A DNA stretch of 4,383 nucleotides from a virus (lineage: Duplodnaviria > Heunggongvirae > Uroviricota > Caudoviricetes). Position 1 is the first letter of the stretch; each line of letters opens with the position of its first letter. Shown here one piece after another: positions 2 through 1,231 of the stretch. Made by a program: the position numbers and the translations under genes. Location: the IMG/VR virus record IMGVR_UViG_2671180283_000018. One strand, 5' to 3'. Below the pieces are notes generated by a model. It was not told the origin of the DNA. It ran no database searches and saw nothing but the letters and a program-made list of their open reading frames with translations.

Positions 2-1231
2 TCTCAGGTGGAAACCTCTGCCCGTTATCTGGGGACCGGCAGTCAGTGGAGTGTATCCGGCCCGCACATTAAGCCCGGGAAGGATTTCTGGTTTTACGTG
101 CGCAGCGTCAACCTGGTGGGGAAATCTGCGTTTGTGGAAGCCAGTGGCCGGGCCAGCAATGATGCAGAAGGGTATCTGGGGCTGTTTCGGGAAAAAATAG
201 GAAAACTGCATCTGGCTCAGGGGCTGTGGGAGCTGATAGACAACAGCCAGCTTGCGGATGAGATGGCGGAGATGAAGACCACCATCACCGAAACCCGCAA
301 TGAAATCACACAGACGGTCAGTAAAACGCTGGAAGACCAGAGCGCCACCATTCAGCAGATACAGCGCGTGCAGAAGGACACAAATGATGACCTGGCTGCG
401 CTGTACATGCTGAAGGTTCAAAAAACGAAAGACGGCATTCCCTATGTGGCCGGGATTGGTGCAGGGATTGAGGATACTGATGGCCAGCCACTGAGCAACA
501 TACTGCTGCTGGCTGACCGTATCGCGATGATAAATCCGGAGAACGGCAACAGCACGCCGTTATTTGTGGCGCAGGGGAATCAGCTGTTCATGAACGACGT
601 GTTCCTGAAGCGACTGTTTGCGGTGAGTATCACGTCATCCGGCACCCCCCCGACGTTTTCCCTGACGCCGGAAGGGAAGCTGACAGCCAGGAACGCGGAT
701 ATCAGCGGAGCAATTACCGCGAATTCCGGGACGCTCAACAATGTCACGATTAACCAGAACTGTACGATTAAGGGCATGCTGGAGGCGACCCAGGTCAGAG
801 GGGATTTCGTTAAAGCTGTATCAAAAGCCTTCCCGAAAAAAGTCGGTACGTGGGGTAACACGGAAACACCAAACGGTACGGTTACAGTCACCATCAGCGA
901 TGATCATAACTTTGACCGCCAGATTATTATTCCGCCCATTATTTTTAACGGTATAGCGTATGACGATCCGGGGAGCGGAAATAACCCAGGAGGCACGCGA
1001 TACACGGGTTATGGTTTTGAAGTTCGCAAAAACGGTGTATTAATCGCATCCAGAGAAACTAAAGGGGCCATTCCCGGTAGCTACAGTGCGGTTATTGATA
1101 TGCCGAGTGGCAGGGGAAGCGTCACTCTGGAGTTTAAGGTTTTCCATAAAGGCAATCAGTGGGCAGGTAATATCACCGACTGTACGGTGATTGTGACCAA
1201 AAAAGCCGCTTCCGGCATCAGTATTCGTTGA
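2..1231 (+). CDS. J: Tail-tip host-specificity protein J, C-terminal portion (5' partial; gene begins upstream of the window)
   Basis: Open frame from the window edge to TGA at 1229-1231; the GTG at 8 in the ORF track is an artefact of the window edge. The translation ([39 protein letters not shown]...[18 protein letters not shown]...[18 protein letters not shown]...[10 protein letters not shown]) matches my recollection of the lambda gpJ C-terminal region. Synteny J-lom-stf supports the call. Confidence 0.88.

Follow-up and report, generated by a model that had tools for sequence, protein, structure and literature searches.

A phage 434-type receptor-binding domain with OmpC as its predicted receptor in the J gene of a phage 2851-type prophage

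The receptor-binding domain at the C-terminus of lambda gpJ binds LamB, whilst phage 434 uses OmpC, and binding is switched to OmpC in lambda in which the 434 fibre gene replaces J (PMC11101478, PMC3509688). When only the gpJ C-terminus is exchanged, at lambda residue 964 and beyond, lambda particles change their target from LamB to OmpC in the case of the A8 and 1A2 types (PMC11338833), and docking of the 434 fibre on OmpC has been modelled with AlphaFold3 (PMC12502783); several distinct J domain types, namely 434, A8, 1A2 and phi330, are reported to target OmpC. Within the specificity region of J, natural homologs exhibit four indel hotspots at lambda residues ~1012, 1048-49, 1077-78 and 1107, with D1107 of lambda being a key residue for receptor switching (PMC6646904). 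In the alpha-helical shaft, one of the lambda gpJ domains whose published names are used here, receptor binding is accompanied by a flip and partial refolding (PMC11101478).

The DNA analysed here (the window: 4,383 nt of IMG/VR virus record IMGVR_UViG_2671180283_000018) contains, in order, the 3' part of J, lom, a collagen-like side tail fibre gene (stf), a small ORF related to the fibre C-terminus, and IS1. Judged by homology to the systems above, the prophage most likely docks on OmpC and not on LamB, using an ordinary and already known variant of the J domain.

The J fragment and its relation to lambda gpJ

The window opens part-way through J, the gene of the tip attachment protein or central tail fibre: the reading frame on the plus strand is open from nt 2 and ends with a stop at nt 1229-1231, such that nt 2-1231 hold the 3' part of the gene with 409 codons plus stop, and not the 407 residues given in the first-pass annotation. 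The start of the fragment aligns at approximately lambda residue 757, with the first ~750 codons lying outside the window and only the last third of J being covered. The gene closes the tail operon, as expected of a lambdoid J, and is followed by lom, stf and the fibre C-terminus ORF in the same order as in lambda, 434 and phage 2851. The domain order is likewise that of a lambda-type J C-terminus: a second Ig/FNIII domain, the tail-tip fibre (beta-prism) and an Ig-like receptor-binding domain. The corresponding Pfam matches all lie above the curated cutoffs (Ig_J_second, aa 2-61; Phage_Tail_Tip, aa 117-244; Ig_GpJ_C, aa 273-408), with Ig_GpJ_C, described as "C-terminal receptor binding domain", scoring 91.7 bits against a cutoff of 26.2; the lambda gpJ chains 8iyk and 8xcj in the PDB are matched in sequence at E-values between 1e-104 and 1e-106. 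A consensus scan found, immediately 3' of the J stop, a terminator-like hairpin with a T run (nt 1250-1273, plus strand; a 10-pair stem followed by TTTATT), and the phage 434 record has a terminator annotated at the equivalent place.

We aligned the J fragment to lambda J residues 757-1132 and counted identities per domain. Identity to lambda is 68% in FNIII-2 (aa 2-61) and again 68% in the moderately conserved beta-prism, or central straight fibre (nt 407-769, plus strand; aa 136-256), which is 93% identical to phage 2851. The C-terminal block (aa 257-409) is identical to lambda at only 57/153 positions (37%), with 11 gap columns and five indels, and identity over the last 102 aa (aa 308-409) is 31%: the drop from beta-prism to C-terminal block is significant (Fisher p = 5.5e-7). 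The divergence from lambda that the first-pass annotation had placed at nt 755-1231 is thus real and lies almost exactly there, and the uniformly high identity through the C-terminus that would have spoken against it was not seen. Its extent had been set too short, at ~110 residues in place of the ~150 of aa 257-409; the peptide quoted as divergent is indeed present at aa 308-409 (nt 923-1228), and comprises 102 residues.

The further assumption that J upstream of this block follows lambda closely did not hold: this part is 53% identical to lambda overall, and the helical-shaft region (nt 185-406, plus strand; aa 62-135), which corresponds in the alignment to the alpha-helical shaft of lambda gpJ, reaches only 18% with 28 gap columns and is the least lambda-like part of the fragment. 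Compared to both lambda and 434, the shaft has 28 additional residues and an identity of just 18%, whereas it is 99% identical to that of phage 2851. The block at nt 185-406 is a second mosaic block of the J fragment, one that is farther from lambda than the receptor domain.

Relative to lambda, the indels of the C-terminal block fall at lambda residues ~1009-1012, 1043-1049, 1077, 1099 and 1109-1114, and the block has indels at all four published specificity hotspots. A LamB-binding allele should exhibit high identity to lambda J over residues ~990-1132 including the loops, and such identity was not found in this block. What is shared with the lambda domain, in spite of an identity of 35-37%, the indels and the use of LamB by lambda, is the Pfam family and a set of conserved motifs (DDH.FDRQI, DMP.GRG and KK.A.GIS), together with the predicted Ig-like fold described below.

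Allele type and mosaic boundaries of the receptor-binding block

The receptor-binding block (nt 770-1228, plus strand; aa 257-409), as delimited by alignment, Pfam Ig_GpJ_C and AlphaFold2/Foldseek, is of the phage 434 type: it is identical to 434 J (OL657226, CPT_434_21) at 150/153 positions (98%) without gaps, and both share the same indels when compared to lambda. In the case of the Stx2c phage 2851 (vhsJ, FM180578), 148/153 residues of the block are identical, leaving five substitutions, and identity over all 409 aa is 93%, with both the 434-type domain and the long shaft in common. A tblastn search with the last 131 aa against 50,697 phage records returned 74 records with at least 90% identity, all other J types remaining below 60%; this group includes 434, mEp460, cdtI, the Stx2c phage 2851 and many Stx1a/Stx2a/Stx2c phages. 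At the DNA level, the domain (nt 770-1231) matches 2,111 of 5,426 complete E. coli genomes (~39%), with 1,224 matching at no less than 95%, and protein matches to the J domain were found in E. coli, E. albertii and Shigella sonnei, mostly as short partial J fragments. A 78-nt pattern across the codons of R371 and W387 had no exact match in genome_contigs, a collection with one genome for each species, and among the best hits listed, the whole window is matched by no complete E. coli genome at more than about 97%. The 434-type block is a known and widespread allele in a known kind of mosaic, and is not new.

Two other identities were considered for the block. An assignment to the A8 allele was rejected, as the A8 gpJ domain is only 42% identical, with unrelated loop sequences, and constitutes a distinct allele; for 1A2, comparison by eye showed that the 3' end given in the supplement of Brodel et al. 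2024 is unlike the present sequence. A search of the same supplement (A8 and 1A2 chimeras) for peptide motifs of the window found none of them.

Comparison of identity along the length of the fragment, a check that had been proposed in the first-pass annotation, located mosaic breakpoints at nt ~731-775 and ~1193. DNA identity to 434 is ~70% up to nt 730 and jumps to 95-100% at nt 731; across nt 731-1231 it is 88-100% per 60-nt interval, with all but one interval at 95-100%, and it remains at 83-100% per 60-nt interval from nt 731 as far as ~nt 3600, across lom, stf and the small ORF. Upstream of nt 731 the two differ: J of 434 is lambda-like there, whereas J of the window is ~70% identical to it and carries the longer shaft. 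Phage 2851 matches nt 5-3754 at 94.9% overall (73-100% per 60-nt interval), with J, lom, stf and tfa in the same order. Using blastn, we also compared the window to a prophage of E. coli O157:H7 TX 265-1, which aligned to nt 1-774 at 95.2% and to nt 1193-4383 at 97.1%, but not to nt 775-1192; at this position the O157:H7 prophage carries an A8-type domain (PDB 9WCA, 9WCB). Since nothing aligns at nt 775-1192 whilst both flanks do, this stretch (plus strand), the only one that is unaligned with the O157:H7 prophage, is the exchanged cassette proper: a cleanly swapped receptor-domain cassette whose flanks are common to all these J genes. The identity, boundaries and mosaic origin of the domain are established by these comparisons.

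The receptor domain is a recombination cassette that lambdoid prophages exchange between otherwise near-identical backbones, with conserved flanks formed by a short protein region upstream and by the ...KK.A.GISI tail and lom downstream. In the present example, the 434-allele receptor domain is joined to a J backbone like that of the Stx phage 2851. The window and the O157:H7 TX 265-1 prophage provide a clean natural swap of the J receptor domain between near-identical EHEC-type prophages, 434-type in the former and A8-type in the latter, and the same J domain swap has already been made on purpose by phage engineers.

Within the domain, seven differences to both 434 and 2851 are clustered in 37 nt (nt 1081-1117), the rest of the domain being nearly identical. 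All of these except the codon of R371 appear to be synonymous, and the cluster looks like a micro-patch from another allele.

Predicted fold and candidate receptor

In order to describe the fold of the block, we used an AlphaFold2 monomer model of aa 257-409 calculated from an alignment of 11 sequences. The model is all-beta, with a mean pLDDT of 75.9 and a pTM of 0.70; its least confident part is residues 61-80 (mean pLDDT 58-61), a loop with a 6-residue insertion compared to lambda. The best Foldseek matches were 9wcb, 8xck, 9wca and 8xcj (E about 3e-12, TM 0.75-0.79), namely A8 gpJ with OmpC, the closed lambda central fibre, the closed A8 fibre and lambda gpJ713 with LamB, respectively. The predicted fold agrees with the solved lambda and A8 gpJ receptor-binding domains, the lambda domain (8XCJ, 8XCK) being matched with TM 0.75-0.77. 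The A8 domain (9WCA; 9WCB with EDL933 OmpC; Brodel et al. 2024) is the best structural match (TM 0.76-0.79); it is an OmpC-targeting domain from a natural E. coli prophage and is found at the same cassette position in the otherwise 95-97% identical O157:H7 prophage.

We assign nt 770-1228, with a probability of roughly 0.8, to the 434-allele Ig-like receptor-binding domain of the trimeric central fibre J with OmpC as the most likely porin. As 434 uses OmpC and the block is near-identical to that of 434, the data support a receptor that is not LamB, with OmpC predicted by homology; the suggestion of the first-pass annotation that the receptor is not LamB is borne out to this extent, 434 being a reported OmpC user. 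For the use of OmpC by 434, Hantke 1978 is also cited. The experimentally OmpC-dependent EHEC siphophage phi330 was considered as direct evidence and rejected, its domain being only ~43% identical; it does illustrate the convergence of several J domain types on OmpC. By homology to the complexes of lambda gpJ with LamB and of A8 gpJ with OmpC, three such domains would reach with their bottom loops into the extracellular mouth of the trimeric porin; we infer that this contact would in turn cause the fibre to rearrange and the tail tip to open.

The OmpC reading could require refinement if the three substitutions that distinguish the block from 434 (N291, D in 434; R371, G in 434; W387, R in 434) altered which OmpC alleles or which porin are recognised, such that the host range would differ from that of 434. 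All three residues are placed in loops or turns by the AlphaFold2 model, near the hotspots at about lambda 1012, 1090 and 1107, with only three residues separating W387 from the position that aligns with lambda D1107, and natural 434-type sequences vary at these positions (GRG or GGG; W, R or G at 387). Fine discrimination is known from other gpJ domains: 1A2 delivers efficiently to OmpC of EDL933 but not to that of MG1655 (PMC11338833). Set against this are the 98% identity to 434, the hypothetical nature of any receptor contact by N291, R371 and W387, and the distribution of W387: 328 complete E. coli genomes contain the exact 65-nt stretch with its codon, which led us to reject W387 as a private mutation and marks it as part of a common allele, not a one-off change. 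We consider a shifted specificity to be unlikely; if true, prophages with the same backbone would split their hosts by small changes in 434-type domains in addition to whole-cassette swaps.

A second concern touches the assignment of OmpC to the 434 J tip itself. In the sequenced lambda h434 imm21 hybrid (OM418627, 506-6237), the 434 J tip is accompanied by 434-type lom, stf and fibre chaperone (tfa) genes and by T3SS effector morons: the h434 host-range allele extends beyond J. Given that the hybrid also has the 434 side-fibre genes, classical genetics does not distinguish between J and the side fibre as the source of OmpC use, and the assignment to the 434 J tip is to be used with caution, as it is not cleanly isolated genetically. 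The OmpC dependence of 434 could accordingly stem from the side tail fibre, in which case OmpC would no longer be predicted for this J domain, and the side fibres of Ur-lambda do bind OmpC. However, the side fibres are accessory in lambda, with Ur-lambda and lambda PaPa titring equally on ompC mutants, and it is the central fibre that triggers ejection; furthermore, C-terminal gpJ swaps suffice for two related types in particles in which an LPS-binding P2 fibre chimera replaces Stf, and stf of the window is collagen-like, unlike the T4 gp37-like Stf of Ur-lambda. As side fibres are dispensable in lambda and gpJ-only swaps are sufficient in these two types, J is favoured as the OmpC determinant, and we regard an origin in the side fibre as quite improbable. 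That the domain still binds LamB, which the predicted fold it shares with the lambda domain would allow, is hardly credible given the 37% identity to lambda, the indels in every specificity hotspot and the link of the near-identical 434 domain to OmpC instead of LamB.

The importance of the result beyond annotation is slight: it names the likely receptor, OmpC, for a 2851-type prophage. Particle production by this prophage may be doubted, with IS1 found 200 bp 3' of the fibre genes and only the last third of J present in the window.

Genes downstream of J

The gene following J is lom (nt 1301-1900, plus strand), an Ail/Lom outer-membrane beta-barrel moron with a full-length match to Pfam Ail_Lom (E = 5e-119) and a DNA identity of 93-100% to both 434 and phage 2851. 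The side tail fibre gene (nt 1959-3278, plus strand; 439 aa; Pfam phage_tail_N, Collagen and Phage_fiber_C) belongs to the block from the J tip to tfa that is common to 434 and 2851, and is ~83-100% identical to 434 per 60-nt interval. Between the phage_tail_N head and the Phage_fiber_C tail, Stf contains collagen-like Gly-X-Y repeats (aa 253-311 by Pfam Collagen, ~nt 2700-3050), and the GC content of the gene rises to up to 71% at nt 2701-3000. Both 434 and phage 2851 share this collagen-like Stf, which has no relation to the T4 gp37-like Stf of Ur-lambda.

An 89-aa ORF (nt 3280-3549, plus strand) matches Pfam PF06820 (Phage_fiber_C, E = 1e-34); the 434 record labels it a tail fibre assembly chaperone. 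Both this ORF and the C-terminus of Stf are Phage_fiber_C (PF06820) sequences, and the ORF looks like a duplicated fibre tip despite the chaperone annotation in 434.

The final element is an IS1 (nt 3756-4383, plus strand) that is cut by the end of the window, with its end GGTAATGCTGCCAAC at ~nt 3756-3770 and InsA domains at nt 3810-4082. Homology to phage 2851 ends at nt 3754, and 2851 has a T3SS effector gene where the window has IS1. In the O157:H7 TX 265-1 prophage, IS1 is annotated at the corresponding place, and the alignment continues through to nt 4383; this prophage adjoins a truncated ompW gene. Matches to the window that run through the IS1 stretch at about 96-97% identity also come from many other STEC genomes.
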